Of a DNA stretch of 61,017 nt, positions 2,742 through 39,788 are shown piece by piece (the stretch's first letter is position 1; the number at the start of each line of letters is the position of its first letter). The stretch covers positions 1-61,017 of the IMG/VR virus record IMGVR_UViG_3300002854_000002, one strand, 5' to 3'. Made by a program: the position numbers and the translations under genes. The notes beneath the pieces are model-generated. The model worked only from the letters and a program-made list of their open reading frames with translations. It had not been told where the DNA came from and ran no database searches. This DNA is from a virus.

Positions 2742-2980
2742 TTCGCTCATTTACGAATTTCCAGTTCGCTGAATCGGCGAATATTGACCGCAGATACCTA
2801 CAAAATCGTCGACCGTAACCCTCTCGTAAATTTAACGACGATTTACCGTTTCCCCCCTCCGGACGCATAAATACACCGGAAAGGACGTAGCGGCGGCAAA
2901 TCGACGTTAATTACACGTAAATAACACGGCACGGGAGGCAGCGGCAGAGTGAGAACTTAAAACGGGAGGTGAGCGTAGGG

Positions 2981-3064
2981 ATGACGCAGGGACCGGTTAA
3001 AACGTGTTTCTTCTATGTACTTAAAATCTTTAAGATCTTAAAGGGATTTAAAATCTTATTTTAA
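2981..3064 (+). CDS. Possible 27-aa peptide MTQGPVKTCFFYVLKIFKILKGFKILF
   Basis: SD GGGAGGTG upstream of ATG 2981. The ORF coincides with a 9-bp-periodic AT-rich DNA repeat, so it may be a DNA element instead. Confidence 0.25.
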   Translation: MTQGPVKTCFFYVLKIFKILKGFKILF

Positions 3065-10075: not shown

Positions 10076-10091
10076 CGAGGAGTGAATCGCT

Positions 10092-11069
10092 ATAGTTACG
10101 ATACGCGGGCCGAGCGGTCCAATCGAATTAGACGTAGACATACGCGCTGAACTCGAAGAATTTACTTGGATTCGGCCGGATTGGAGCGACGTTAAACTTA
10201 TCGCCGCAAGTCCGTTTCGTTACGATAAAACGCCGAGTTGGGCCGTTAGTTTAGAACACGGTGGCTGGCGTGATTGGGGCGCAACGGACCCGGAATATGA
10301 ATCGGGCAGTTTCGTAAAGTTGCTTTCCAGCCTCCGGGATGAGACATACGGAGAAACAGTGGAGTATCTTACGGTGAAATACGGTGACACAACGCCCAGC
10401 GATCCGGAAGACTTTACGCTAACCTTTCCGAAACTGAAAGTACCCGAGCCGCGTAGAATCCGCCTTGACAGCGAGATTCTCGATCAATACCGCTATCGTT
10501 CGCCGTATCTTGCCGGGCGCGGAATTAGCGAAAATGTACAGCGCATAATGTCGATCGGATATGACCGTAAGAGCCGCGCTGTGACGTTTCCGTGGTTTAA
10601 TCCGGATGGGACATTAGGCAACGTTAAATACCGGAAAACCGACGCTAAGACGTTCTGGTACGCTTCGGGCGGCCGTCCTCTACGTGAAATGATCTACGGA
10701 ATCCATATCGCTTATCAGCGGAGAATAACGCGAGCTGCGATCGTGGAGGCCGAGGTTGATGCATTAACGCTTATGAGCGCGGGGATCTACGCCATCGCGA
10801 CGGGCGGCACTGCATTTACAGCGGCTAAGCGCGATTTAATATCACGGTCGCCGATCGAGGAATTGACGTTATTTCGCGATAATGATCCGGCGGGAAGAAT
10901 ATGGCGTAATCGAATCATAACGGAATTAGGCTCTCGGATGGATATGCGCCTGGCATACATGCCGAATGCGTATAAAGACGTTAACGAGTGGGGATCTTGC
11001 GGTGGGAATCTTCGGAAGGCGTACGATAGAGCGCGCAAATGTCGAAAACTGACGGTTAATATACGTTGA
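10092..11069 (+). CDS. Toprim-domain DNA primase, apparent non-canonical start
   Basis: Toprim core EAEVDALTL...FRDNDPAG. The frame is open from 10086 and encodes a degenerate CHC2-like motif SPFRYDKTPSWAV upstream of the first canonical start (TTG 10320). SD GAGGAG 10077-10082 lies 9 nt before ATA 10092. Confidence 0.7.
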   Translation: MVTIRGPSGPIELDVDIRAELEEFTWIRPDWSDVKLIAASPFRYDKTPSWAVSLEHGGWRDWGATDPEYESGSFVKLLSSLRDETYGETVEYLTVKYGDTTPSDPEDFTLTFPKLKVPEPRRIRLDSEILDQYRYRSPYLAGRGISENVQRIMSIGYDRKSRAVTFPWFNPDGTLGNVKYRKTDAKTFWYASGGRPLREMIYGIHIAYQRRITRAAIVEAEVDALTLMSAGIYAIATGGTAFTAAKRDLISRSPIEELTLFRDNDPAGRIWRNRIITELGSRMDMRLAYMPNAYKDVNEWGSCGGNLRKAYDRARKCRKLTVNIR

Positions 11070-14152: not shown

Positions 14153-14263
14153 ATGAACGCAGTATCAACGTTAGAAAGACCGGCCGTAGCTGCGGGAGGA
14201 AGCGGATATAAACCGCCTACTCCCCGGCCGCCGGCGTTAAGCTTCGGAAAGGAGCGCGATTGA
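14153..14263 (+). CDS. Hypothetical small Pro-rich protein (36 aa)
   Basis: Strong SD GAAGGAGG upstream of ATG 14153. Confidence 0.35.
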   Translation: MNAVSTLERPAVAAGGSGYKPPTPRPPALSFGKERD

Positions 14264-14687
14264 GACGGCGCATTTAAGCGAGATTGTCGGAAAGTACTCG
14301 GAACTAGCGGCGCGGCTCGCTCTCATGGCGGCGGGCTGGACCGTTCACAAAGCGGAGACGGAAGAAGCGTACGACATCCTCGCGACCGATCCACTAACCG
14401 GCGCGCACGCTAAACTGCAGGTCAAAACGATTCGCCAACGGATGGATCGCGCCGGCGACCTCGTTATATACGCGAAGAAAGGGAACGGCACGGCCTACGA
14501 CCGGTCCGACGCTGACTATATCGTTGGCGTGTGGGCGGCGGATGGCGAAATGCCTCGCGTATATATGCTCGAAAACCGGCTGCTTACGGAGTATTGGGCG
14601 TCCGAAGCACGAGCGGCCGAGCGTTGGGTCGAATTACCGATCGCGCTAGATCGGAGCGTGTTCGATGACACTCGATCGGAGGAATGA
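14259..14687 (+). CDS. PD-(D/E)XK endonuclease-like protein (group I intron-associated type), apparent ATT start
   Basis: Pattern SE...AARLALMAAGW.V....E..YDILA.D......KLQVKT...D.D.IVGV. The N-terminal helix lies upstream of the first ATG (14325). ATT 14259 overlaps the upstream stop (ATTGA), 4 nt after GGAG. Confidence 0.55.
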   Translation: METAHLSEIVGKYSELAARLALMAAGWTVHKAETEEAYDILATDPLTGAHAKLQVKTIRQRMDRAGDLVIYAKKGNGTAYDRSDADYIVGVWAADGEMPRVYMLENRLLTEYWASEARAAERWVELPIALDRSVFDDTRSEE

Positions 14688-14871
14688 GCGGACAGTCGCT
14701 GTTTGCGCGCAATGCCGCGGTGAAATATACGCCGGCGACGAAGTAATGCGGATAGATGACGGTGAAGCGTTCGTACACAACGGCTATCCACACAAATGCG
14801 CAGCCGAGTACGCAATTGAACGAGTTTACGACGCAGCCGGAACGGTAAATGAGCGCGGCGAAATTATATAA
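14665..14871 (+). CDS. Hypothetical small protein with CAQC motif (68 aa)
   Basis: Intact ORF overlapping the previous gene end. Confidence 0.45.
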   Translation: MTLDRRNERTVAVCAQCRGEIYAGDEVMRIDDGEAFVHNGYPHKCAAEYAIERVYDAAGTVNERGEII

Positions 14872-14891
14872 CGAAAAGGGAGCGATGCTTT

Positions 14892-16985
14892 TTGGCAAAG
14901 TTAAACGTAGAAACTGTACCGGCTGTAAGCGTAATGATCGAGGGCGTTGAATACCGTAAGGTTGAACGGGCAGCTAAGGCGGGCGATATCGTTAAAATGG
15001 TTGCCACGTCAGCTGACGATGACGTAACGATCGGAGGCTTCTACTACGTTGACCGCGTCGACTCGTGCGGGGACGCGCATATCACCGGCGATGAAGGCGG
15101 TGATTTCGATACCGTCGGCGATACGCTGGAAGTCTACGAGAAAGTAGCGGAAGAGAATGCGGAGACAGCACCGCGCCGGCTTACCGTTGGGGATTACGCG
15201 AAAGTCGTTTCTGAACGTGCTAGCCGCTCGTCCTCGCATCGTCACGAAGTAGGATCGGTAGTTAAGATCGTGATTGATGATAAGTCAGCGCTACCATATA
15301 AATGCGAGAAAGCTGACGGAACTCGCGGCTGTTACATTTACGAAGACGAGATGGAGCCAGCGACGGAAGCCGAGTTCCTGGCGCAGAAGAAGCCGCAGGA
15401 CTCATCGTTTAAGTCCGGTGATGTCGTTCGTAGTAAAACGGGTTCTCCAACGTGGACGACAACGTTAAAGGAACGCGATCCACGAATGGACGGAACTGAG
15501 CACGGTAAAGCGTGGATGCATACGCACGACAGCGGATGGATCGGCGAGAATCAGTTCGAAAAGGTTACGGAAGAGGTTCCGGAAACAACGAAACCGACTG
15601 AGCCGGCTGCGATTAAAACGGAACCCTACGTCATCCACGACGGAAAAGTCTACGTTAAGGAAACGCGCACGGCGAGAGTCGGCGAGGTTATTACGCCACT
15701 AAAACGCGAGCGTTACGTAACCGTGGGGGGAACGTACGAAGTCACGACTAGATCGCCGCATCACGTTCACTTTACGGACGATGAAGGCGACCGCTGGCAT
15801 ATTGCTGACGGAGACTACGCCGTACTCGTACCGGTCCCGACGGAGCAACGCAAGGCTGAATCCGGCGACCGCATCGTTGTAATTTCGGTTCATCACGAAG
15901 GAATCGTCGTAGGCGAGACGTTGACAGCTAGCTCCGTAGACAGTGAAGGCATAGTCATCACGGTTAAGGAACGCAATATTCCGGGATTTATTTTTTACAA
16001 CGGAAGCCGCGTAGGGAAGGAATACGTTGTGTTGGGGGACACTTCGAAGCCGGCGCGCTTAACGGTAGGTGATTACGCGAAAGTCGTTGAGGATGCGGCG
16101 CATTACGAAATCGGCGAGATTATCCGCATCACGGAAGACGACGGTACTCGCGTTCCTTACATGGGGGAGCGTGCTAGCGACGGTACAATTGGCGGCTATA
16201 TTACGCAGACCAAAGTCGTACCGGCAACACGTGAGGAGTTCGAAGCCCGCCGCGCTGAAGCAGCCGAGCCTGCGCGTCTTAAAGTCGGTGATTACGCCCG
16301 AGTTGCGAAAGCTTACGGAGGCCATTTCGCAAAAGTTGGCGATATCTTAAAAGTGTGGGACATCGTAACGTACGGAGATAATCATATCCGCTGCGAAAAA
16401 CTGGACGGTTCACGTAAAGGTAACGATTACTTCTACGATGACGAACTTGTCCGTGCTACTGACGAAGAGATTGCCGCCGCTAAGGAAGCCGCTGATCCAC
16501 GCAATCAATTCGCAGTCGGCGATAAAGTGCGATTGATTAGCGGAGGCAGAGCGCATCCTCTGCGCGGGTATCAAAACGGCCAGATGTACACCGTTGAAGA
16601 CCCGAAGTTCTCCGGTCACCGGAACGAACGAATTAAGATCGTTGGAGGCGACCAGCGTACTGCATTCGCTAAACCGGAGCAGCTCGTTAAAGTTAGCGCT
16701 GAAGAGATCGCTGCAGAGTCGGCGAAGGCTAAATGGGCCGCGATCGGGCGTAAAGTCAACGAGTATAAAACGGGCGATATCGTACGAATCACTGCGGATA
16801 GATCGGCTGCAGGCGTTGTAACTGGCGAGATTGCCGAAGTGAAGTCGTCAGAGTCTGGAATCGTAAACGAAGGCGTACGTTTGACGAAGATAAATCCTAG
16901 CGGGAGTAATTCGTGGGTAGCCGTTAGTGATGTTGAACTCGTTACGCCGGTTGAGCAACGTTTCGATACACCGCGAAGCTGCTAG
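14892..16985 (+). CDS. Tandem-repeat protein, about 9 small beta-barrel (SH3/Tudor/KOW-like) modules (697 aa)
   Basis: Recurrent 55-70-aa units begin with (R)L.VGDYAKV / VGD.V.V. An exact 18-nt DNA repeat GATTACGCGAAAGTCGTT occurs at 15192-15209 and 16071-16088. TTG start with AAGGGAG upstream. Confidence 0.7.
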   Translation: MAKLNVETVPAVSVMIEGVEYRKVERAAKAGDIVKMVATSADDDVTIGGFYYVDRVDSCGDAHITGDEGGDFDTVGDTLEVYEKVAEENAETAPRRLTVGDYAKVVSERASRSSSHRHEVGSVVKIVIDDKSALPYKCEKADGTRGCYIYEDEMEPATEAEFLAQKKPQDSSFKSGDVVRSKTGSPTWTTTLKERDPRMDGTEHGKAWMHTHDSGWIGENQFEKVTEEVPETTKPTEPAAIKTEPYVIHDGKVYVKETRTARVGEVITPLKRERYVTVGGTYEVTTRSPHHVHFTDDEGDRWHIADGDYAVLVPVPTEQRKAESGDRIVVISVHHEGIVVGETLTASSVDSEGIVITVKERNIPGFIFYNGSRVGKEYVVLGDTSKPARLTVGDYAKVVEDAAHYEIGEIIRITEDDGTRVPYMGERASDGTIGGYITQTKVVPATREEFEARRAEAAEPARLKVGDYARVAKAYGGHFAKVGDILKVWDIVTYGDNHIRCEKLDGSRKGNDYFYDDELVRATDEEIAAAKEAADPRNQFAVGDKVRLISGGRAHPLRGYQNGQMYTVEDPKFSGHRNERIKIVGGDQRTAFAKPEQLVKVSAEEIAAESAKAKWAAIGRKVNEYKTGDIVRITADRSAAGVVTGEIAEVKSSESGIVNEGVRLTKINPSGSNSWVAVSDVELVTPVEQRFDTPRSC

Positions 16986-16997
16986 GGGGCGGTTCTG

Positions 16998-18776
16998 ATC
17001 GACGTAAAACTGACGCTAAACACACGTGTTAAAGACGCTGTACGACGTAAGACGGCGGCTATTCCGGAAACAGCGGCCGAAGCATTTGTGAGAATCGGCG
17101 CGATGGCACTCTCGGATAAGGAGCGCGCACAGTACGTAGAAGCTCGCCAAGCCTACTCAGACGGACGAATTGGTAACGTTCGATCTGATAACGCTAAATG
17201 GACGAAGGGCGACGTACTGGCGGCAGGCGCGCGCTTATTACGAGAGAAGGCGGAGTCAATCCGGAGGGAGCGTATGGCGGAAGTCGTACGCTCCAAGCCC
17301 GCCAATTATCACGTATTAACGAACGATTCCGAGTTGCCCGCGTTTATCGAAAGACTCCGCGAAGAGTGTCGTAGACAAACCGCCGAGTGGACGGACCGAT
17401 TCCGCATACTCGGCGTTGATACAATGACGGCCGGCGACTTCGAAGGAACCGGGATCGATACGTACATCGATTTATCGATCGGCTACAGCGTGTGGTTGCC
17501 GTTGCTCGACGAAGGCTATTATCTCGCGTACGGTCACGTTGATATGCGCGGCGAAGATGGCTTCGAGTTTCTAACGGAAGAGTCAGCGTTCAAGGAGTCT
17601 GATCCTCAGCTTACGCGTTCGAAAGTATTAGCGGCAATTATCCCGTACTTATCGCGGCCGAATCACGGCAAGACGTTCCATATGGGATCGGCTCGCTACG
17701 ATTTACACGTCGCGGATAAAGACGGCTACGAGATTCGCGGCTGCGTTTGGGATACGTTGGACGCCATGAATTTAATGAACGAACACGAACCAGCATACGG
17801 ATTGAAGCCGTTGATTGCGAAGTACGGTCCGGCTTTCGGGATTAACGGTCCGATCGTTACCTTCGAAGATCTATTCGGCCCGCGCTCGCCGGCTCCGTTT
17901 AATACGGAACTCGTCGGCATCTACGCAATCAACGACGTTAAATACGGATGGTCGCTGTTCGAATGGCAGTTCGCGCAAATGGGAAAAGCGCCGAGCGCTA
18001 ACGGAAATGGCCGGCTCCTCGAATGCTACGCGTTGATCGATTCGAAGCTGCCGGAGACCGACGTATTCATGGCACGTTGCGGATTCGAAATCGATACAGA
18101 CGGATTGGCGCGACTGGCAGCGGAGTTTACGCCGAAGTTGGAGGCGGCCCGCGCGGAGGTCATCGAATCGTACGGAATTGATGCGGCCTTTGTACGGAAA
18201 ATGGATCGCGCCCTTCACAGCGCTAAAGTTACGGAATGGATCGGTAAGCAAGGCTCTCGTATCGCCCGTAGGCGTGAGCAATTAACGAAGCATCGTGCCA
18301 TTATTGCGGACTGTGAAGAGCGCGGTAAGACGGATACGAAGAAATACACGGAAGCCGCTGCGAAACTGGCGGAGTTGGAGGCGGACGTACTAGCGCCAGC
18401 CGACGAGGAACATGCGCCGCTTTTTACGGAAGATTTTTCGATTACGAACGGCAACCATCTCGCGTATCTCATTTACGATCATCTCGGAATCCGTGACCGG
18501 ACGCCGCAATTCAAACGCGGCAAGACGCGCTCTACGGCGGCCGACGTCCTGGACGCGTACTACGAAGAGGAAGAGGCACTAAAGCCGCTAGCGACGGTTG
18601 CGGCATACGAGAAACTGCTTAATACGTACGTGACGAAGGTACCGGCGGCGCTCGAAGGTGATGGGCGGCTGCATACGGAGTTTAAGGCGGGCGGCACGTC
18701 AACGGGGCGCTATAGCAGCGCGGGCTATCGTGGGCGGCCGATCGATATATTAGCGGAATTTGAAACGGAGGGGTAA
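16998..18776 (+). CDS. Family A DNA polymerase, N-terminal piece (3'-5' exonuclease plus first part of the polymerase domain)
   Basis: Ends at ...LHTEFKAGGTSTGRYSS followed by an 18-aa tail. Canonical starts are GTG 17088 or ATG 17103, neither with an SD. ATC 16998 lies 8 nt after AGGGGG. Confidence 0.8.
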   Translation: MDVKLTLNTRVKDAVRRKTAAIPETAAEAFVRIGAMALSDKERAQYVEARQAYSDGRIGNVRSDNAKWTKGDVLAAGARLLREKAESIRRERMAEVVRSKPANYHVLTNDSELPAFIERLREECRRQTAEWTDRFRILGVDTMTAGDFEGTGIDTYIDLSIGYSVWLPLLDEGYYLAYGHVDMRGEDGFEFLTEESAFKESDPQLTRSKVLAAIIPYLSRPNHGKTFHMGSARYDLHVADKDGYEIRGCVWDTLDAMNLMNEHEPAYGLKPLIAKYGPAFGINGPIVTFEDLFGPRSPAPFNTELVGIYAINDVKYGWSLFEWQFAQMGKAPSANGNGRLLECYALIDSKLPETDVFMARCGFEIDTDGLARLAAEFTPKLEAARAEVIESYGIDAAFVRKMDRALHSAKVTEWIGKQGSRIARRREQLTKHRAIIADCEERGKTDTKKYTEAAAKLAELEADVLAPADEEHAPLFTEDFSITNGNHLAYLIYDHLGIRDRTPQFKRGKTRSTAADVLDAYYEEEEALKPLATVAAYEKLLNTYVTKVPAALEGDGRLHTEFKAGGTSTGRYSSAGYRGRPIDILAEFETEG

Positions 18777-18778
18777 AA

Positions 18779-18937
18779 GTGGCAAAAGTTGTAGAAACGA
18801 ATGTTCCGAAGGATATCGAGTTGACGATCAAGCTAAACGTAGAGGAAATCGGTGTACTAACGCGGGCTATGGGGCGGCACGTTGAGGGCTACGAGTTGTT
18901 CAGATTCTTTGACCGTCTTTACGAACAGTATCGCTAA
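18779..18937 (+). CDS. 52-aa ORF inside the polymerase split
   Basis: GTG 18779 lies 3 nt after the upstream stop, with SD GGAGGGG. Its TAA overlaps the ATG of the downstream polymerase piece (TAATG). Confidence 0.45.
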   Translation: MAKVVETNVPKDIELTIKLNVEEIGVLTRAMGRHVEGYELFRFFDRLYEQYR

Positions 18938-20019
18938 TGCTGACGATAACTGACACCAATTACCACGCTATCGTCCGCAAGCTCATCGCCGACGAGCGCA
19001 AGGTTCCGAAGGGTACGAATCTTCAGAACATGCCGAGCAAAGGTGGCGGCGTCCTCGTCCGTAATCAATTCGTTCCGCGCGCCGGCTTTACGTTCGTCGG
19101 CGCTGACCTCGGCCAAATCGAACCGCGAATCATGGCGCACATCATGTGGACAGTATACGGAGACAACTCCATGCGTCAGATTTTCGTCGACGGCACGGAC
19201 TTGTATACGACTATGGCGATGATGACGTTTAGTTTGGCGGAAGAGTTTTGCGTAGATAAAGCGTACGATCCGACCGGCACGTTTAAGCCGCGTTCTCTCA
19301 TGAAGACCGGAGTACTCGCGGTCAGTTACGATCAGTCACCGCGTTCCTTCGCTAAGAAGATGAACGTAACGGACGAGGTAGCTGCGATGTTCTTCGAAAA
19401 CTTCGACCGTACATTCCCGTCGTTTAAGGCGATGGTAGCCGACATTCGTGACGCGATGAGACTAAGCGGTTATGTTGAAACGTTATACGGACGCAAACGG
19501 CGTTTCCCGGATTACAAGAGCGTGGCTGCAGCGGCCGCCAAGAACGAACAGCGCCTAATCCGGCTATACACGGAGCGCAAGCAGATCAACGCGAAAACAG
19601 CGCCAACGCCGCGCGATCAACAGCGATTAATAGCGTTACAGGACGAAATCGACGTTCTCGCGGAAAAACGCGGCCTTATCGGCTATTGGGAACGCGCGGC
19701 ATTTAACGCGGTCATTCAAGGGACCGGCGCGGATATCCTGAAGATGAACGGGAATCGAAACGCGCGGATATGCAAGGAACGCGGATGGGAATTTAATGCG
19801 TCGATCCACGATGAAATCAAGAACAGCGTGCCGAATGACGACCTTACGCCGGCAACGATCGAGCTTATCGACGAAATCATGACGAAGACGGCCGAGCTGA
19901 GCGTTCCGTTGGTTACGGATATCGTAATCGAGCCGCGTTGGATGATGGAGTATGGGCCGGACGAGTGGGATTACGTTAACTGCCGGCCGAAAGCGGAGTT
20001 CGCGAATAAATATGTATAG
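18937..20019 (+). CDS. Family A DNA polymerase, C-terminal piece (motifs A, B, C)
   Basis: GTNLQNMP, ADLGQIEPRIMAH (motif A), RSLMKTGVLAVSYD (motif B), SIHDEI (motif C). Confidence 0.9.
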   Translation: MLTITDTNYHAIVRKLIADERKVPKGTNLQNMPSKGGGVLVRNQFVPRAGFTFVGADLGQIEPRIMAHIMWTVYGDNSMRQIFVDGTDLYTTMAMMTFSLAEEFCVDKAYDPTGTFKPRSLMKTGVLAVSYDQSPRSFAKKMNVTDEVAAMFFENFDRTFPSFKAMVADIRDAMRLSGYVETLYGRKRRFPDYKSVAAAAAKNEQRLIRLYTERKQINAKTAPTPRDQQRLIALQDEIDVLAEKRGLIGYWERAAFNAVIQGTGADILKMNGNRNARICKERGWEFNASIHDEIKNSVPNDDLTPATIELIDEIMTKTAELSVPLVTDIVIEPRWMMEYGPDEWDYVNCRPKAEFANKYV

Positions 20020-20039: not shown

Positions 20040-20309
20040 ATGAAAATTACGGAGATTCACAATATCGGCGGAGATGACGATTACGAATACTGCGGAAAGG
20101 GTTCGATCACGGTTACAGTCGAGGACGACGCAGGCAATCGTAAAAGCGCCGACATCAGCGCGGGCGAGCCGGAGGATGCGGTATTCTTCCGCGATTTGAA
20201 CGGTGCTTACAATATCGCTGACATCGTTAAACTAGCGTACGAAGCCGGTAAGCGAGGCGAGGAAATGACGTACGAGTTTCGGGACGATAACGAAGAGGAG
20301 GCGGTTTAA
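20040..20309 (+). CDS. Acidic hypothetical protein (89 aa)
   Basis: Intact ORF with SD GAGGAGG. Confidence 0.55.
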   Translation: MKITEIHNIGGDDDYEYCGKGSITVTVEDDAGNRKSADISAGEPEDAVFFRDLNGAYNIADIVKLAYEAGKRGEEMTYEFRDDNEEEAV

Positions 20310-21368
20310 ATTAGCGTATTCACACGCATTGGAAACGCAGATCAAACGCAAACGGACCAAATCGCGGCTGACTTTACGGAATATCTCAACGCATGGCACT
20401 CGCAGCCGGAAACGTACGACGATGCTTTAGACGCGCAGATTCATCGGTGGTATGCGGACATCCTTACGGACAAATCGCGTAAAGTGTGGCCGCCGCGTGA
20501 CATACCGTACTTCTCGCCATCATCCGCGAATAGTTGTCCACGCGAACTTTACGAGAAGATCCGTAAAGCCAAGCGCGATAAGTCGCTCACTTCGCCGCAC
20601 CAAGGCCGCTGGCGCTCGATCGGAACCGCCATTGGCGACGTAATACAGCGAGATCTATTGTTCGCGGAGAAGCATCTTGACTCCGAAGCGATCGGTAATC
20701 AAGTATTTATGTTCGAGCGTAACGAACGCGGTGAGCCGATGTTTGAGAACTTCGCAAAGAAGAACGCCATCTTTACGCATCGCGGTAAAACGTTCTCTAT
20801 CTCCGGAACATGTGACGGCATCATGCGCTATGTATCGGAGGACGGTGAGGTTATACGCGTCGGTGTCGAAGTTAAGTCGAAGCAAACTACGTCCGCTAAG
20901 ACGTCAGAGTATTCAACGCGTAACGGCCCAGGCGCTGACCACGTCAAACAATGCGTATGTTATTCGCTTATGTACGGTACGGTCGATGAGCCAATTGACT
21001 ATTACATTATCCTTCACGTTAATGCGTCAAAAAAGGCATGGCAAATGAGCGCAGAGGATTACGCCAAGACGCCAGATATTAAGGCGTTCTGCTTCGAAAT
21101 AACGGACGAGATGCGGCACGGCGTTCTCGATTACTTTGCGGACGTCCTCGACGCGATAGAAAAGAACGATCCGCCTGCGCTAGATATCGGTAAGTTTACT
21201 TTTAACAACTACAAACGTGCGTGTGCGGCCGGTTTATCCGATGAGGAATACGCGGCCTTACAACGCCAAGTTGACGCAATACAACGCAGCGGATTGAAGG
21301 ATTTCGAGAAGCGTAATTATGCGGAAGCATTCGAACAATTAACGGAGTTACGGAAGGGGATCGCGTAA
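20310..21368 (+). CDS. PD-(D/E)XK (RecB/Cas4/YqaJ-like) exonuclease, apparent ATT start
   Basis: CDGI...VGVEVKS (D...E.K) and QCVCY (QxxxY). 58 sense codons are open between the upstream TAA and the first canonical start (GTG 20484). ATT 20310 lies 8 nt after GAGGAGG. Confidence 0.65.
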   Translation: MSVFTRIGNADQTQTDQIAADFTEYLNAWHSQPETYDDALDAQIHRWYADILTDKSRKVWPPRDIPYFSPSSANSCPRELYEKIRKAKRDKSLTSPHQGRWRSIGTAIGDVIQRDLLFAEKHLDSEAIGNQVFMFERNERGEPMFENFAKKNAIFTHRGKTFSISGTCDGIMRYVSEDGEVIRVGVEVKSKQTTSAKTSEYSTRNGPGADHVKQCVCYSLMYGTVDEPIDYYIILHVNASKKAWQMSAEDYAKTPDIKAFCFEITDEMRHGVLDYFADVLDAIEKNDPPALDIGKFTFNNYKRACAAGLSDEEYAALQRQVDAIQRSGLKDFEKRNYAEAFEQLTELRKGIA

Positions 21369-21755: not shown

Positions 21756-21998
21756 ATGGACCAAAAGCTACGCGATTACCTGACGATTACGGCGTTCGGC
21801 ACATTCGCAGCGGAAACCGATACGGATTTATCCGATATCATAACGCCGGAAGTCGTCGAAGCACTCTGCGTAAAATTCCCCGTTGATATTCCGCAGACGG
21901 CCGAGACTCGCGCGCTATCAACGGAGATTGTCCGCCAGATTGTCCGTGACGCGCTAGAACGGATAACGGAGGTGGCCGCCGATTCCTCCGAAAATTAA
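21756..21998 (+). CDS. Hypothetical protein (80 aa)
   Basis: ATG directly follows the upstream stop. Confidence 0.5.
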   Translation: MDQKLRDYLTITAFGTFAAETDTDLSDIITPEVVEALCVKFPVDIPQTAETRALSTEIVRQIVRDALERITEVAADSSEN

Positions 21999-22506
21999 AG
22001 AACCGACGCTAATCTACGCGGGACTCGATCTATCGCTAACATCGCCAGGATTCGCGGTCGTCTCCGTTAAGGGCCGCGTTCCTACGTTAGTCGCGACGTC
22101 AGTCGTCAAAACTGAAGCAGCCGAGGCGCAACCGCTACGCTACGAGGTAATCGAAGCGCACGCCTTATTATTCTTCCGCCAGTACACGCCGTCATCTGCT
22201 ATCATACGAGAAATATGGCCGCCATCACGTAACTTCGAGCAGAACGATAAAGTTCACGGAAGTTGGAGCGCGGTCGATCGCGCCCTATCCCGCCTTGGAC
22301 TCGTTGTAGCGGAGAGCCTTGCGCCAAGTAGCGTTAAGAAGCTAGTAACTGGAAACGGCCGCGCCGAGAAGCCGGAAGTAGCGGAGGCAGTACGGAGGAT
22401 TTTACGCCTCGGTCCGGATCACGTATTTAAGGCGGGGTATGACGATGCGGACGCATGTGCCGTAGTCCTGGCGTATCTTATCCGCGAAGAGTTGATTTCG
22501 ACGTGA
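21982..22506 (+). CDS. ruvC: RuvC-like Holliday junction resolvase (174 aa), absent from the ORF track, ATT start
   Basis: Hand translation gives 175 open codons: ..LIYAGLDLSLTSPGFAVV...AIIREIW...VKKLVTGNGRAEKPEV...GYDDADACAVVLAYL. The only in-frame ATG/GTG/TTG is TTG 22492, four codons before the stop. SD GGAGGTG 21968-21974 lies 7 nt before ATT 21982. Confidence 0.8.
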   Translation: MPPKIKEPTLIYAGLDLSLTSPGFAVVSVKGRVPTLVATSVVKTEAAEAQPLRYEVIEAHALLFFRQYTPSSAIIREIWPPSRNFEQNDKVHGSWSAVDRALSRLGLVVAESLAPSSVKKLVTGNGRAEKPEVAEAVRRILRLGPDHVFKAGYDDADACAVVLAYLIREELIST

Positions 22507-22667
22507 CTCTCGCCGATAGCCTACGCGCCGAACTCGCCCACGTCGAGTACTGCATCCGGATTCGTAACGAAGACTTGACGCAGCTTAACGCAAGGAAAGC
22601 GGAAATTGTAAGACAAATCGCGCAACACGAAGGAGAGCGAAATATTGACGGAAATTCACGTAATTAA
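22503..22667 (+). CDS. Hypothetical small protein (54 aa)
   Basis: GTG 22503 overlaps the RuvC stop. An alternative ATG 22455 would overlap ruvC by 52 nt. Confidence 0.35.
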   Translation: MTLADSLRAELAHVEYCIRIRNEDLTQLNARKAEIVRQIAQHEGERNIDGNSRN

Positions 22668-26527: not shown

Positions 26528-26534
26528 CGTGAAT

Positions 26535-27116
26535 ATGGCAAGGTTAAGCGGAGTTTACGAAACCGGCAACGTAATCGAGTACAACGGTGTGCGTTACGAG
26601 AGTACGGAAGATGACCCGCAAGTCGGCGATATCCTACGTAGCGGAACGCACTACTCATTCATGCCGAAGGGAGCTTTTTACGCAGTCGTAGCAGATAGCG
26701 AAAGTGATAACATCGGCATACTCGATGAAGACGAAACGTTTCTACTGGCCGATGGTGACGATATAGTATTCCGCCGCAACGTGTTAACAACTGCGCAGAT
26801 CATCGAACAAAAACGTGCAGCAGTCGCATCCCTTAACGCTGAAATCGCGGAATTAGAGACGGAAATGGCGGAGGAGTCAGCGCTGAAAGTCGGCGACTAC
26901 GCGCGGTTCGTATCTGGTGGTGACTTCAGCGAAGGAACAATCGTCGTAGTGGATAATACAGACGGACAGCGGCGGTATCCGTATGAGGTACACGCGGCGT
27001 TATGCCCCGAGTTGTCGGAGTACGTTAGCGCAAATCAACTTGAACGCTTAACGCCCGCCGAAGCACGCGCCGCTCTCATCGCGCAAATTGACGCGCTGTT
27101 TCCGGTAAGTCCCTAA
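26535..27116 (+). CDS. Repeat-module protein, paralogous to 14892-16985 modules (194 aa)
   Basis: Two beta-barrel-like modules (the second begins LKVGDYARFV) separated by a coiled coil. Confidence 0.6.
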   Translation: MARLSGVYETGNVIEYNGVRYESTEDDPQVGDILRSGTHYSFMPKGAFYAVVADSESDNIGILDEDETFLLADGDDIVFRRNVLTTAQIIEQKRAAVASLNAEIAELETEMAEESALKVGDYARFVSGGDFSEGTIVVVDNTDGQRRYPYEVHAALCPELSEYVSANQLERLTPAEARAALIAQIDALFPVSP

Positions 27117-27570
27117 CGTTTTAACCGCTGTCCTAGCGTATTTCTCGCTCCTTGCCGCGCTTGTAACGGCCGAGCCGGAGCCGCCCGCATCGAAAGAACC
27201 GACGTGGCATACGTTCGAGGCGACTGAAAAGCAGGGGACGTGGCGGTCTTTCGCGGCCACTGCCTACACGGCTGATTGTCGCGGCTGTACCGGCATTACA
27301 AAAACGGGAGTTAACGTAAAACAGACGCAGTATGACGCATATGGACGACGCATAATCGCGGTTGATCCGGCCGTCATCGCGCTTCATTCGGAAGTCGTCG
27401 TAATGTTGGCGGATGGCTTCACGTTTACGGCGGTCGCGGAGGACATTGGTGGCGCAATTAAGGGATCGCGGATTGACGTATTGACAGCGGATAGGAAGAC
27501 GGCGGAGAGGTTCGGCCGCCAGGACGTACAAATATGCGTAATGGGAGACGATGCGTATGATCGAAGTTAA
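27109..27570 (+). CDS. 3D-domain (MltA-like, YuiC/YocH-type) cell-wall protein with signal-peptide-like N-terminus, no identifiable start codon
   Basis: 154 open codons: ..LTAVLAYFSLLAALVTA..FAATAYTADCRGCTGITKTG...IIAVDPAVIALHSEV...EDIGGAIKGSRIDV...FGRQDVQICV. The first in-frame canonical start is ATG 27403, inside the domain. No ATT/ATC/ATA/CTG and no SD near the 5' end. Confidence 0.6.
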   Translation, partial: VPNVLTAVLAYFSLLAALVTAEPEPPASKEPTWHTFEATEKQGTWRSFAATAYTADCRGCTGITKTGVNVKQTQYDAYGRRIIAVDPAVIALHSEVVVMLADGFTFTAVAEDIGGAIKGSRIDVLTADRKTAERFGRQDVQICVMGDDAYDRS

Positions 27571-30008: not shown

Positions 30009-30038
30009 ACGCAATTATAACGCAAATGGCACGCAATT
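30009..30038 (+). promoter_or_regulatory. Three ACGCAA(T/A)T boxes phased at 11 bp
   Basis: ACGCAATT 30009-30016, ACGCAAAT 30020-30027, ACGCAATT 30031-30038. They lie in the divergent intergenic region. TACAAT sits at 30038-30043. Confidence 0.5.
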
Positions 30039-30062
30039 ACAATCATACGGGAGGCGTTAAGT

Positions 30063-30449
30063 ATCGGAGCATGTAACGTAGACCTAACGGAAAAAGGCCG
30101 CCAATACAGCGTACAGTACGCGCTCAATGACGCTGCCGGGGTAAAGGCGCTATTGCGCGATCGCCACAAGATCGCTGCCCGCCGTTTTAACGGAGATACG
30201 GACGCTTCCGACATTCTCCTCGACCTCCATAGCGCGATTGAAAGCAGCGGTATCACAGATCGCCAAGCGGAAGCGATAGCGCTTGTTTACGGCCTCGACG
30301 TTACGCAGGGGACGGCAGCGCGTGTTATGGGCGTCGGCCAAGATAGCGTAAGCGACTTCGTAAATGGGGCAGCGGCGCGAATAGCAGCGGTCTATCAGCG
30401 GTGGGAATACGGAATTATTAGCGTTCAGTTAGAGGGGGAAATCGTTTGA
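30063..30449 (+). CDS. Sigma region-4-like / ArpU-like transcription regulator, apparent ATC start
   Basis: ITDRQAEAIALVYGLDVTQGTAARVMGVGQDSV is an HTH. The frame is open from 30021. GGAGG 30050-30054 lies 8 nt before ATC 30063. The first canonical start is TTG 30153, which has no SD. Confidence 0.5.
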   Translation: MGACNVDLTEKGRQYSVQYALNDAAGVKALLRDRHKIAARRFNGDTDASDILLDLHSAIESSGITDRQAEAIALVYGLDVTQGTAARVMGVGQDSVSDFVNGAAARIAAVYQRWEYGIISVQLEGEIV

Positions 30450-38075: not shown

Positions 38076-38162
38076 CGGAAGGAGGCGGACGATACGGCCT
38101 TTGTAAACAACGAATGGTTAACGCGTCCGCTTCGTACGGAACATCTCGCTATTTTACGTGAA

Positions 38163-39788
38163 TTGGACGCGGAATATGGCGGCCTGGACGACTTGACGGC
38201 GCACGATATTACGCAGTGGGAAGACGTGGCGGCTCAGTTAGAACGTATCAGCCGGGTCCAACGCGCCGAGTACGATTTACTCTACTTCGTTTACGAATAT
38301 TTTTCGGAGGACCGAAACCCCGGCAATCCGGATAACTTGATACCGGCCGGCCAGCGCTTCGAGGACGCAGCGGACTTTCACGTAACGTTGTGCTCGCTCC
38401 TGGACTCAATAACGCGCGGGGAAACGGCCGATAACGTAGCGTGGTCGGTGGGGCGCGGCCATGCGAAGACGGCGTATTTATCGAACGCTTACCTTTGCCA
38501 CAAAGTAGCGTATCGGCACAAACGTTATGTCGTGCAGCTATCGGAGACAACAGACGTAGCCGGCGACTTCATCCAGTGGACGCGGAATCAGCTCGTTTTT
38601 AACGAGAAATTGCGTGCTGACTTCGGCGAGCTGCTTTACGCCAAGAAATCGATGAATGATACGGATAACAAATACGAGTTTGTTACGATAAGCGGTACGA
38701 AGGTTGAAGCGAAGGGTATCGGGACGCAGATGCGCGGCCTTCGACATGGAGCGACGCGGCCGGACTTGTTTTTACTCGACGATCTGGAGTCACGCGACAA
38801 TACGAACACGCCGGAATTGCGGGCGAAGAATAAACAATGGTTCCGCGAGGAAATGCTGCCGGCGCTTTCCCGCGAAGGTGCTTGCGTATACATGGGAACG
38901 ATCGTTCATTACGATTCCGTACTCAATTACGTAATCAACGAGCGGCGCGACTTTAAATCGAAGAAGTTTCCGGCTATCTTAACGTGGTCAGAACGAGAGG
39001 ACTTATGGGAACTTTGGCGTGCCATCTACCGGTCGGATATAGCGGATGCGCGCGAAACTGCAGCGGCTTTTTACCGTGAAAATGAAGCGGATATGCTGCG
39101 CGGAACACAAACGTTATGGCCGCAGCGTTTTACGTATTTGGACCTTATGGAAATACGCGAGAATGACGGAGCCAAGGCGTTCAATCAGGAGTATCTCGGT
39201 AATCCGATCGATGAAGAGACGCAGGTTTTTAAGCCGGAAGATTTTACGTTTTATACGGATGAGGAAATCGTGAATATTGATATTCAAACGTTCGCCGCCG
39301 TCGATTTCGCGATGGGTAAAGAAAAAGGCGATTATAGCGCAATCATTACCGTCGGGCGTAGTCCTAACGGTATTTTTTATGTCCTGGATACGTTTATCAA
39401 GCGCGTCCATCCTGACATTTTGCTCGATACAACGGTTGAAAAAACGCTCGCGTATCAGTACGAAGGATTGGCGGTCGAGGCGCAGCAAGCGCAGGAGTGG
39501 TTTGCGGATAAAGTAGCGGAGGCATTGAAGAAACGCGGCTATCCCGCGCAAACACGCTTGAAGCAGATAAAGCAGCGGACACGTAAAGCGCTGCGGATTG
39601 AAGCGTTACTCCCGGATATCCAAGCCGGCCGTATTCGTTTCAAGCGCGACCAACGGCTGCTCCTCGAAATGTTCGAGTTATATCCGAATCATAATCACGA
39701 TGACGGACCAGATGCTTTGTCGATGGCCGTGAACGTCGCGCAGGCAAGCGGCGGATCAGTCCGTACTTCAGCAAAAAGGACGCGCTAG
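38163..39788 (+). CDS. terL: Terminase large subunit
   Basis: ATPase region (GRGHAKT, LFLLDDLES) and C-terminal nuclease (HNHDDGPDALSMA). The start is uncertain: the frame is open from 38076 and the only strong SD (38080-38085) has no canonical start after it. Confidence 0.85.
   Translation: MDAEYGGLDDLTAHDITQWEDVAAQLERISRVQRAEYDLLYFVYEYFSEDRNPGNPDNLIPAGQRFEDAADFHVTLCSLLDSITRGETADNVAWSVGRGHAKTAYLSNAYLCHKVAYRHKRYVVQLSETTDVAGDFIQWTRNQLVFNEKLRADFGELLYAKKSMNDTDNKYEFVTISGTKVEAKGIGTQMRGLRHGATRPDLFLLDDLESRDNTNTPELRAKNKQWFREEMLPALSREGACVYMGTIVHYDSVLNYVINERRDFKSKKFPAILTWSEREDLWELWRAIYRSDIADARETAAAFYRENEADMLRGTQTLWPQRFTYLDLMEIRENDGAKAFNQEYLGNPIDEETQVFKPEDFTFYTDEEIVNIDIQTFAAVDFAMGKEKGDYSAIITVGRSPNGIFYVLDTFIKRVHPDILLDTTVEKTLAYQYEGLAVEAQQAQEWFADKVAEALKKRGYPAQTRLKQIKQRTRKALRIEALLPDIQAGRIRFKRDQRLLLEMFELYPNHNHDDGPDALSMAVNVAQASGGSVRTSAKRTR

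Follow-up and report, generated by a model that had tools for sequence, protein, structure and literature searches.

Two kinds of described system are relevant to the gene reported here, namely phage-encoded resolvases and genes that are translated from near-cognate codons. Lactococcal phage bIL67, which has a Gram-positive host, encodes a RuvC-fold resolvase (PDB 4KTW; DUF3882 subgroup) that is promiscuous on branched DNA (PMC3864405). Non-canonical initiation is already known from infC, the gene of initiation factor 3 (IF3), which uses AUU, and from Listeria rnhC, which uses ATC. Near-cognate starts are discriminated against by IF3, which results in low or regulated output (PMC5499595; PMC13068326). 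Non-canonical starts make up less than 0.3% of the core genome of Listeria, a Firmicute (PMC13068326), and the published annotation of phage SPP1 uses only AUG, GUG and UUG, with none of its 80 open reading frames (ORFs) starting on a non-canonical codon (PMC6316719). Here, we analyzed a 61,017-nt stretch of viral DNA (IMG/VR record IMGVR_UViG_3300002854_000002, hereafter the window). We consider it quite probable that positions 21982-22506 are a functional phage gene of the RuvC family, most likely translated from an AUU codon at 21982 behind a strong Shine-Dalgarno (SD) sequence and probably aided by ribosomes arriving from upstream.

The mechanical six-frame ORF list of the window, which accepts ATG, GTG and TTG as starts, holds nothing at the RuvC frame because the first canonical start occurs only at TTG 22492, codon 176 of 179. 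The frame runs uninterrupted from CGG 21967 to the TGA at 22504-22506 on the + strand, following an in-frame TAA. No other + strand frame of at least 110 codons has to be read to its very end before a canonical start appears. An earlier note on this DNA had described the frame as open, as holding this TTG as its sole canonical start and as absent from the six-frame track, and had pointed to a GGAGGTG located 7 nt before an ATT that overlaps the end of the previous gene. All of these statements were borne out (Table 1), the overlap with the upstream ORF being 17 nt.

The product is supported as a putative RuvC-family resolvase by profile searches, predicted fold and catalytic residues. The translation matched Pfam PF02075 (RuvC) with 46.7 bits, where the gathering score is 22.2 (E=3.9e-12), over profile positions 3-146 of 148, and it also matched PHROG 159, annotated as 'RuvC-like Holliday junction resolvase' (E=6e-22). 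Thus, the lack of a RuvC match, which the earlier note had named as a refuting result, did not occur, and the RusA models that it had suggested alongside RuvC were irrelevant to a protein with a RuvC fold. We collected 110 homologues with identities of up to 81%, and a profile of 39 homologues matched seven solved RuvC structures (best E=1.8e-10), placing GLDLS opposite GIDPG, the Glu of REIW opposite the catalytic Glu, and DD(S/A)DA opposite the H143/D146 region of the Thermus thermophilus enzyme. The AlphaFold (AF2) model, with a predicted local distance difference test score (pLDDT) of 91.5 and a predicted template modeling score (pTM) of 0.85, shows the predicted RNase H-like alpha/beta topology of strand-strand-strand-helix-strand-helix-strand. 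In a Foldseek search with this model, the top 12 PDB matches were all bacterial RuvC, with template modeling (TM) scores of 0.72-0.89 and root mean square deviations (rmsd) of 2.0-2.9 A. All motifs of the textbook RuvC layout that the earlier note had listed are present, namely GLDLS (aa 14-18), IIREIW (74-79), VKKLVTGNGRAEK (118-130) and DDADA (154-158). The acidic tetrad D16, E77, D154 and D157 is complete, and its E, D and D are invariant across the 39 homologues. The i/i+3 spacing within DDADA matches that of D138 and D141 in Escherichia coli RuvC, whose acidic residues are D7, E66, D138 and D141. Additionally, a Lys/Arg/Pro-rich N-terminal tail of 12-15 residues precedes the first strand.

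The ratio of nonsynonymous to synonymous substitution rates (dN/dS) was 0.07-0.12 relative to relatives, in seven comparisons with unsaturated dS. Therefore, the frame is maintained as a protein under purifying selection. The protein missed the cut-offs of the NCBIfam cellular RuvC equivalogs TIGR00228 and NF000711 (36.8 versus 100.65 bits and 50.2 versus 163 bits, respectively) and is therefore a member of the phage subfamily instead of an orthologue of the RuvABC enzyme. This placement agrees with the use of RecU in Gram-positive hosts (PMC3864405). When the product was written with M for I at the three candidate starts, no exact match was found in a collection of 15 billion proteins. The window RuvC adds one more ordinary member to a phage/prophage RuvC subfamily that was already known.

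Judged from the sequence, ATT 21982 is the best-supported and most likely start of this gene. No canonical start precedes the catalytic residues, the SD stands at a functional spacing, and the codon is a one-base neighbour of ATG. The SD duplex with the 3′ end of 16S rRNA (the anti-SD) is -14.0 kcal/mol. Two other non-canonical codons, ATT 21994 and ATC 22012, are also in frame and 5′ of the catalytic Asp16, but translation from either is highly improbable, since both lack an SD (+0.3 and -1.3 kcal/mol, respectively) and relatives have their conserved start position elsewhere in the alignment. For want of an SD, we ruled them out as starts. In contrast, the 'IPPK' that begins at ATT 21982 aligns with 'MAPK' and 'MQPK' at the annotated Met of homologues (P0005 and P0018). 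The proposal of this codon by the earlier note is therefore backed by the sole strong SD, by the alignment with Met and by the codons occupying the same position in relatives. Fourteen of 38 aligned homologues in a large protein collection are annotated with N-termini beyond the catalytic Asp, as gene callers do when the true start is not ATG, GTG or TTG. The DNA of three such shortened calls carries GGAGG, 9 nt and then CTG upstream.

We then read the start position across the family. Related RuvC loci were taken from genomes, IMG/VR and metagenomes (the metagenome scan contributed only 4 loci), and the region 5′ of the catalytic Asp was read codon by codon. The start was defined as the in-frame codon 7-9 nt past the GGAGG core, regardless of codon identity. 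Relatives carry a conserved GGAGG(T/C)G, 8-9 nt, the codon, and then Ala, Thr or Pro and a Lys/Arg-rich tail. Throughout the clade, this codon-blind rule yielded CTG, ATA, ATT, ATC, TTG, ATG or ACG; the exceptions were members with ATG at a 6-nt spacing and one with an N-terminal extension fusion. After curation, the start codons of 67 unique loci were CTG (28), ATG (16), ATA (10), TTG (5), ACG (4), ATT (2), ATC (1) and GTG (1). Every locus has ATG or a one-base neighbour at this position, whereas such codons make up 17% of gene-body codons. All 33 Leu codons at the start position are CTG or TTG, which make up 33% of the Leu codons of gene bodies, and 10 of 13 Ile codons at this position are ATA (28% in gene bodies).

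The non-canonical share was 59-68% after clustering at 90, 80 or 70% identity, and Fitch parsimony on a neighbor-joining tree required at least 20 start-codon changes and at least 9 switches between canonical and non-canonical codons. Near-cognate starts thus appear to be a trait of the family, affecting about two thirds of the clade, and not a peculiarity of the window copy. Many loci have an in-frame stop within or right after the SD (GGAGGTGA), and a longer ORF is therefore excluded in those loci. Moreover, the Prokaryotic Genome Annotation Pipeline (PGAP) of RefSeq starts two relatives exactly at the homologous CTG (P. terrigena P0018 = L005 and P. campinasensis P0028 = L006). Within the RuvC family, SDs are stronger at non-canonical than at canonical starts (median -14.0 versus -12.6 kcal/mol, p=3e-5, without phylogenetic correction), which fits a design of strong SD and weak codon.

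These relatives also bear on the idea that the window gene is a silent remnant with a lost ATG, or that an ATG was turned into ATT by an error of sequencing or assembly. In favor of this, the window consists of one metagenomic contig, the protein calls of its source do not include the gene, and few family members (2 of 67) have ATT. However, a remnant or error is difficult to reconcile with 174 intact codons, all catalytic residues and a dN/dS of about 0.1, and about six other genes on the same contig share the design, which random errors would not bring about. The closest relatives of the window RuvC start with CTG (L117-L119 and L001) or ATA (L040), and the ATT would therefore be a derived variant of a state that was already non-canonical. 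We regard a remnant or an error as very unlikely.

Two observations on divergent members of the family are recorded here in their own right. In L113 and L114 (IMG/VR contigs of about 100 kb, positions about 2950-3010), a distant RuvC has in-frame TAG codons near its N-terminus, reading MSNLIK, TAG, FCAD, TAG and SLNRPGF, which suggests phages with reassigned TAG. In L022 and L080 (a Paenibacillus chibensis prophage), the RuvC frame extends upstream of position 3007 through a Cys-rich stretch, CSDCGAKVEGGYCNC, and the SD is missing from its usual place; this could be a variant of the resolvase fused to an N-terminal zinc finger.

The window is phage-like, with nearly all genes on the + strand. 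In nucleotide searches of a phage collection, the sole match was one of 105 nt to Brevibacillus phage Sundance; with no near match, the window does not represent a described phage. Genomes of Paenibacillus and Neobacillus, together with IMG/VR contigs, supplied the nearest relatives of its RuvC (74-81% identity). The gene lies in a co-directional replication module comprising a DnaB-like helicase, a primase, a split family-A DNA polymerase (at least two ORFs), a Cas4-like nuclease (PHROG 1706), two small ORFs, RuvC, a further small ORF and the large subunit of ribonucleotide reductase (RNR). No RuvAB partner was evident in the window, and no tRNA gene able to alter start decoding was found in it. 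The exact protein of the 80-aa upstream ORF is present in the JGI/IMG collection, whereas RuvC is missing from the protein calls of the source contig. A look-up of the upstream ORF in a contig index found nothing. At its 3′ end, the RuvC gene overlaps the next ORF by 4 nt (GTGA type), and the same overlap was called in L117, L118, L119 and phage Unity.

The upstream ORF 21756-21998 is a likely partner for translational coupling. Across the family, the 3′ end of an upstream ORF runs over the RuvC start in 54 of 67 loci, usually with 11-26 nt of overlap. The upstream ORFs, with lengths between 50 and 376 codons, evidently represent different genes. AUU initiation might even occur only or mainly by termination and reinitiation, in which case ribosomes would slide back about 15 nt from the TAA at 21996-21998 and RuvC would be made as a fixed fraction of the upstream protein. 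Besides the frequent overlaps, three observations speak for this: no + strand promoter-like or terminator-like site is found between 19800 and 23000, upstream translation would open a hairpin of -10.2 kcal/mol over the SD, and the ATT of the Cas4-like gene directly follows a TAA in a conserved motif. However, 13 of 67 RuvC starts have no overlap, the SDs are unusually strong, as expected for direct recruitment of the 30S subunit, and the sigma-factor-like gene shows the same design at ATC 30063 after an apparent intergenic region. The hairpin, which pairs the SD with codons 2-3, is found in the window only; relatives carry GCG AAG in place of CCT CCG, and no conserved regulatory RNA structure was found at the RuvC start (z-score -0.01 for a 101-nt region). 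We regard initiation only or chiefly by this route as possible but rather unlikely. It would be a variant of our explanation, not an alternative to it, with free 30S subunits contributing little.

In the window, as in most family members, the RuvC frame is shifted by +1 from that of the overlapping upstream ORF, which raises the question of whether RuvC is a C-terminal fusion that needs no start codon of its own and is produced by a programmed +1 frameshift within 21967-21995. A further point in favor is that in prfB an SD-like element upstream of the shift site stimulates +1 frameshifting. Against this, the upstream partners are heterogeneous, and some 20 nt, instead of 3 nt, separate the SD from the upstream stop. 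Inspection by eye of the 29-nt overlap (GCC GCC GAT TCC TCC GAA AAT TAA) revealed no slippery motif such as CUU-U or CCC-U. Many relatives have ATG, TTG or GTG at the exact position defined by the SD, and in the Brevibacillus laterosporus group the upstream ORF ends before the ATG. We therefore rejected a prfB-type fusion, which is extremely improbable.

Overall, we favor initiation at AUU 21982 with probable help from upstream translation, and we propose the following putative mechanism. The strong SD, GGAGGUG, would place the 30S subunit at the AUU, where the initiator tRNA would pair with two of three bases and the codon would presumably be decoded as fMet. Ribosomes that complete the upstream ORF probably assist, since its last 17 nt contain the RuvC start; terminating 12 nt downstream, they may melt the local hairpin or re-initiate. 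The combination of a very strong SD and a weak codon would set a low, fixed dose of a potentially DNA-damaging nuclease. The RuvC-family (RNase H-fold, DEDD) resolvase would then cut Holliday junctions and other branches in replicating or recombining phage DNA before packaging, a role that fits its position in the co-directional replication module.

We infer both that the output of RuvC is low and that low output is a selected property. In E. coli reporters, AUA, AUC, AUU and CUG gave 0.1-3% of the AUG level (bioRxiv 10.1101/063800), and in another E. coli construct near-cognate starts gave 5-7.5% (PMC5499595). A Listeria reporter with a 17-bp gene overlap ranked ATG > ATA > ATT (PMC13068326). 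Overexpressed phage 67RuvC fragments plasmid and chromosomal DNA (PMC3864405), and by analogy, dose limitation of a branch-cutting nuclease is a plausible reason for the weak start.

The habit of weak starts appears not to be specific to RuvC, as about six other genes of the same phage seem to share it. In several + strand frames of the window, the PHROG match begins well 5′ of the first canonical start, and each has an SD followed after 8-9 nt by a near-cognate codon (Table 1); for the primase and the sigma-factor-like gene, the homology begins 28-60 codons 5′ of that start. The gene of the PHROG 5018 protein has no canonical start with an SD, and its ATT 14259 is too near the SD. The first canonical start of the terminase large subunit (TerL), TTG 38163, has no SD, whereas its candidate ACG aligns exactly with the ATG (most), TTG, GTG or ATC starts of about 50 relatives (80 loci fetched), after which the conserved N-terminus reads M-A-[FYW]-[VIL]-[ND]-G-x-W-L. 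The Cas4-like nuclease has GTG 20484 as its first canonical start, yet its homology extends from codon 18 of the frame. Its ATT 20310 stands immediately 3′ of the TAA of the upstream gene within a conserved GGAGGCGGTTTAA-ATT motif, and about 28 Cas4-like loci have aGGAGGCGGTTTAA followed by ATT, ATC, CTG or ATA. On this comparative evidence, the Cas4-like nuclease is a second family with a seemingly deeply conserved near-cognate start. Over all fetched loci, an SD with a near-cognate codon headed long frames without an early canonical start 71 times, compared with 5-16 times for three decoy codon sets. Orphan SD sites were followed by a near-cognate codon in 6 of 12 cases in the window versus 1 of 12 in SPP1, a crude control that picks up SDs of genes in other frames.

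Table 1. Features of the RuvC locus, candidate near-cognate starts elsewhere in the window, and proposed alternative starts in Paenibacillus phage Unity (SD values in kcal/mol)
Feature	Position	Candidate start	Strand	Evidence or remark
In-frame TAA closing the RuvC frame on the 5′ side	21964..21966		+	Leaves 5 codons (CGG AGG TGG CCG CCG) ahead of ATT
SD sequence GGAGGTG	21968..21974		+	7 nt before ATT; 9 nt from the GGAGG core
Candidate initiation codon ATT (AUU)	21982..21984	ATT 21982	+	SD, homologous positions, alignment with annotated Met
RuvC-family Holliday-junction resolvase coding sequence, 174 aa + TGA (putative)	21982..22506	ATT 21982	+	Profiles, predicted fold, dN/dS
Catalytic Asp16 (GLDLS), first of the acidic tetrad	22027..22029		+	Aligns with the GIDPG Asp of T. 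thermophilus RuvC
Catalytic Glu77 (IIREIW)	22210..22212		+	Invariant in homologue alignment; aligns with the AVxEQ Glu of T. thermophilus RuvC
Asp154 and Asp157 (DDADA), third and fourth acidic residues	22441..22452		+	Invariant alignment columns D159 and D162; T. thermophilus H143/D146
Upstream 80-aa ORF	21756..21998	ATG	+	SD -14.0; last 17 nt overlap the RuvC start
Downstream small ORF	22503..22667	GTG 22503	+	Start overlaps the RuvC stop as GTGA; alternative ATG 22455 in the same frame
Local hairpin CGGAGG...CCUCCG	21967..21990		+	-10.2 kcal/mol; SD paired, AUU in loop
Primase (Toprim)	10086-11069 (frame)	ATA 10092	+	SD 8 nt before; PHROG homology begins 5′ of first canonical start
140-aa PHROG 5018 protein (function unknown)	14241-14687	ACG 14265	+	9 nt after AAGGAG; match from profile position 2
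Polymerase segment		CTG 16995 or ATC 16998	+	Homology precedes first canonical start
Cas4-like/PD-(D/E)XK nuclease (PHROG 1706)	20296-21368	ATT 20310	+	SD GGAGG 20297-20301, -12.9
Sigma-factor-like gene	30021-30449	ATC 30063	+	SD 8 nt before; no overlapping upstream + strand ORF
TerL	38079-39788	ACG 38094	+	SD AAGGAGG, duplex -14.8
Unity portal		CTG 3742		SD -15.4; annotated GTG 3868 without SD
Unity RuvC		CTG 36675		Annotated internal TTG without SD
Unity RNR alpha		ATA 37353		SD -9.3; annotated TTG 37455 without SD

Two further observations concern neighbouring frames. The family-A polymerase is split over 14853-20019. Pfam DNA_pol_A positions 16-124 fall in ORF 16995-18773 and positions 126-380 in ORF 18937-20016, and ORFs 14853-16985 and 16986-18776 are in the same frame with a single TAG between them. 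These ORFs may be separate subunits, a read-through product or a split gene. At 27109-27570 lies a 3D-domain peptidase frame whose N-terminal segment, VLTAVLAYFSLLAALVTA, is hydrophobic. Before codon 98 it offers no canonical start, no SD is recognisable at its 5′ end, and it lies in the +1 frame of ORF 26529-27116, the end of which it overlaps.

The same design may have affected published annotations. In Paenibacillus phage Unity (MH460824.1, L204), three annotated starts lack an SD, and each has a 5′ in-frame near-cognate codon with a good SD (Table 1). Its RuvC in GenBank (UNITY_53) starts at an internal TTG past the catalytic Asp, and that of phage Tripp (TRIPP_71; L116, 1801-2031) is annotated as 76 aa only. 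The annotations of Unity and Tripp at these genes look wrong.

The near-cognate starts might be real and yet non-adaptive, if in strongly SD-dependent Firmicute hosts a good SD tolerates drift among ATG and its one-base neighbours in genes of low demand. The frequent switching of start codons, even between proteins that are more than 90% identical, would be expected under drift, as would the occurrence of the habit in unrelated genes (sigma factor, primase, portal and RNR). However, ATG, GTG and TTG should then still dominate, as they do among the 53 canonical-start genes listed for the window (ATG 37, TTG 11 and GTG 5), in SPP1, where all starts are canonical, and in the Listeria core genome, where nearly all are (PMC13068326). 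Changes from CTG to ATT or to ATA take two substitutions each, and the sole functional intermediate, ATG, was apparently not kept. Additionally, the RuvC and Cas4-like families hold weak codons across deep divergence. We therefore consider drift an unlikely explanation, although one with some claim to attention.

Several points weigh against our account of AUU-driven, dose-limited expression. The start-codon efficiencies are borrowed from E. coli and Listeria, which may not represent the host of this phage. The sigma factor, the primase, the portal (Unity) and RNR (P. larvae phages) share the design and are not obviously toxic, which weakens the 'nuclease dosage' rationale. As the window is a single metagenomic contig, a base-call error from ATG to ATT is conceivable. 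The hairpin that sequesters the SD is unconserved, and the codon-bias tests treat related sequences as independent, for which the parsimony count is a partial correction. As to purpose, general dose-setting, IF3-dependent regulation as in infC and tolerated drift are alternatives, and any purpose assigned to the weak start is hypothetical.

Notwithstanding, we speculate that near-cognate initiation (CTG, ATA, ATT, ATC and ACG) behind very strong SDs is a selected, lineage-wide device for setting expression in siphophages of the Paenibacillus/Brevibacillus type. Such a device would have been kept through dozens of switches and would be concentrated in DNA-cutting and DNA-metabolism genes (RuvC, Cas4-like exonuclease, terminase, primase and polymerase); these genes could form an IF3-sensitive translational 'regulon' that tracks the initiation fidelity of the host. 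We offer this tentatively, as an idea somewhat short of probable. If it is true, standard phage annotation systematically shortens or misses such genes. Callers limited to ATG, GTG and TTG drop or truncate RuvC, and likewise the terminase, portal, RNR, primase and Cas4-like genes of the group. By our count, near-cognate starts would account for roughly 7 genes of the approximately 85 in this phage and for some two thirds of the RuvC family, where start codons switched independently at least 20 times. The group would also offer a natural comparative system for how a strong SD and a weak start together set protein dose and for whether phages exploit the discrimination by IF3.

In the searchable literature, we found no description of near-cognate starts in phage RuvC or in Paenibacillus phages, nor any account of how widely such starts extend through a family or a phage, of ACG among them, of how often they switch or of the mis-annotation of published phage genomes that follows. 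Already known, besides infC and rnhC, was the silent use of CTG by PGAP for the two relatives. The start-codon habit is the interesting part of this locus, and the RuvC protein itself is ordinary.

Compared with described systems, the window protein is closest to the RuvC proteins of Paenibacillus larvae phages (Unity, Tripp, C7Cdelta and Halcyone) and of Paenibacillus and Neobacillus prophages, which belong to the same family (54-81% identity). As in the window, their genes lie between Cas4-like/exonuclease genes and ribonucleotide reductase and combine an SD with a near-cognate start, but they start with CTG, whereas the window RuvC starts, in our reading, with ATT. Bacterial RuvC (E. coli, 1HJR; T. 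thermophilus, 4LD0 and 6S16; PF02075) has the fold, length class and acidic tetrad in common with the window protein, at 24-32% identity, TM scores of 0.75-0.89 and an rmsd of about 2-3 A. In contrast to these cellular enzymes, the window gene is of the phage/prophage type of Paenibacillaceae, whose hosts use RecU (PMC3864405). Although likewise phage-encoded, the bIL67 enzyme has only a remote structural similarity (TM about 0.59, E about 5e-4, 11-12% identity) to the window protein, which is much nearer to cellular RuvC. With respect to the start, infC (AUU) and Listeria rnhC (ATC) likewise have a conserved near-cognate codon behind a functional SD. However, infC is one autoregulated gene of the cell and prefers a single codon, whereas in the phage RuvC the codon turns over freely, several genes are affected and no feedback loop is evident.

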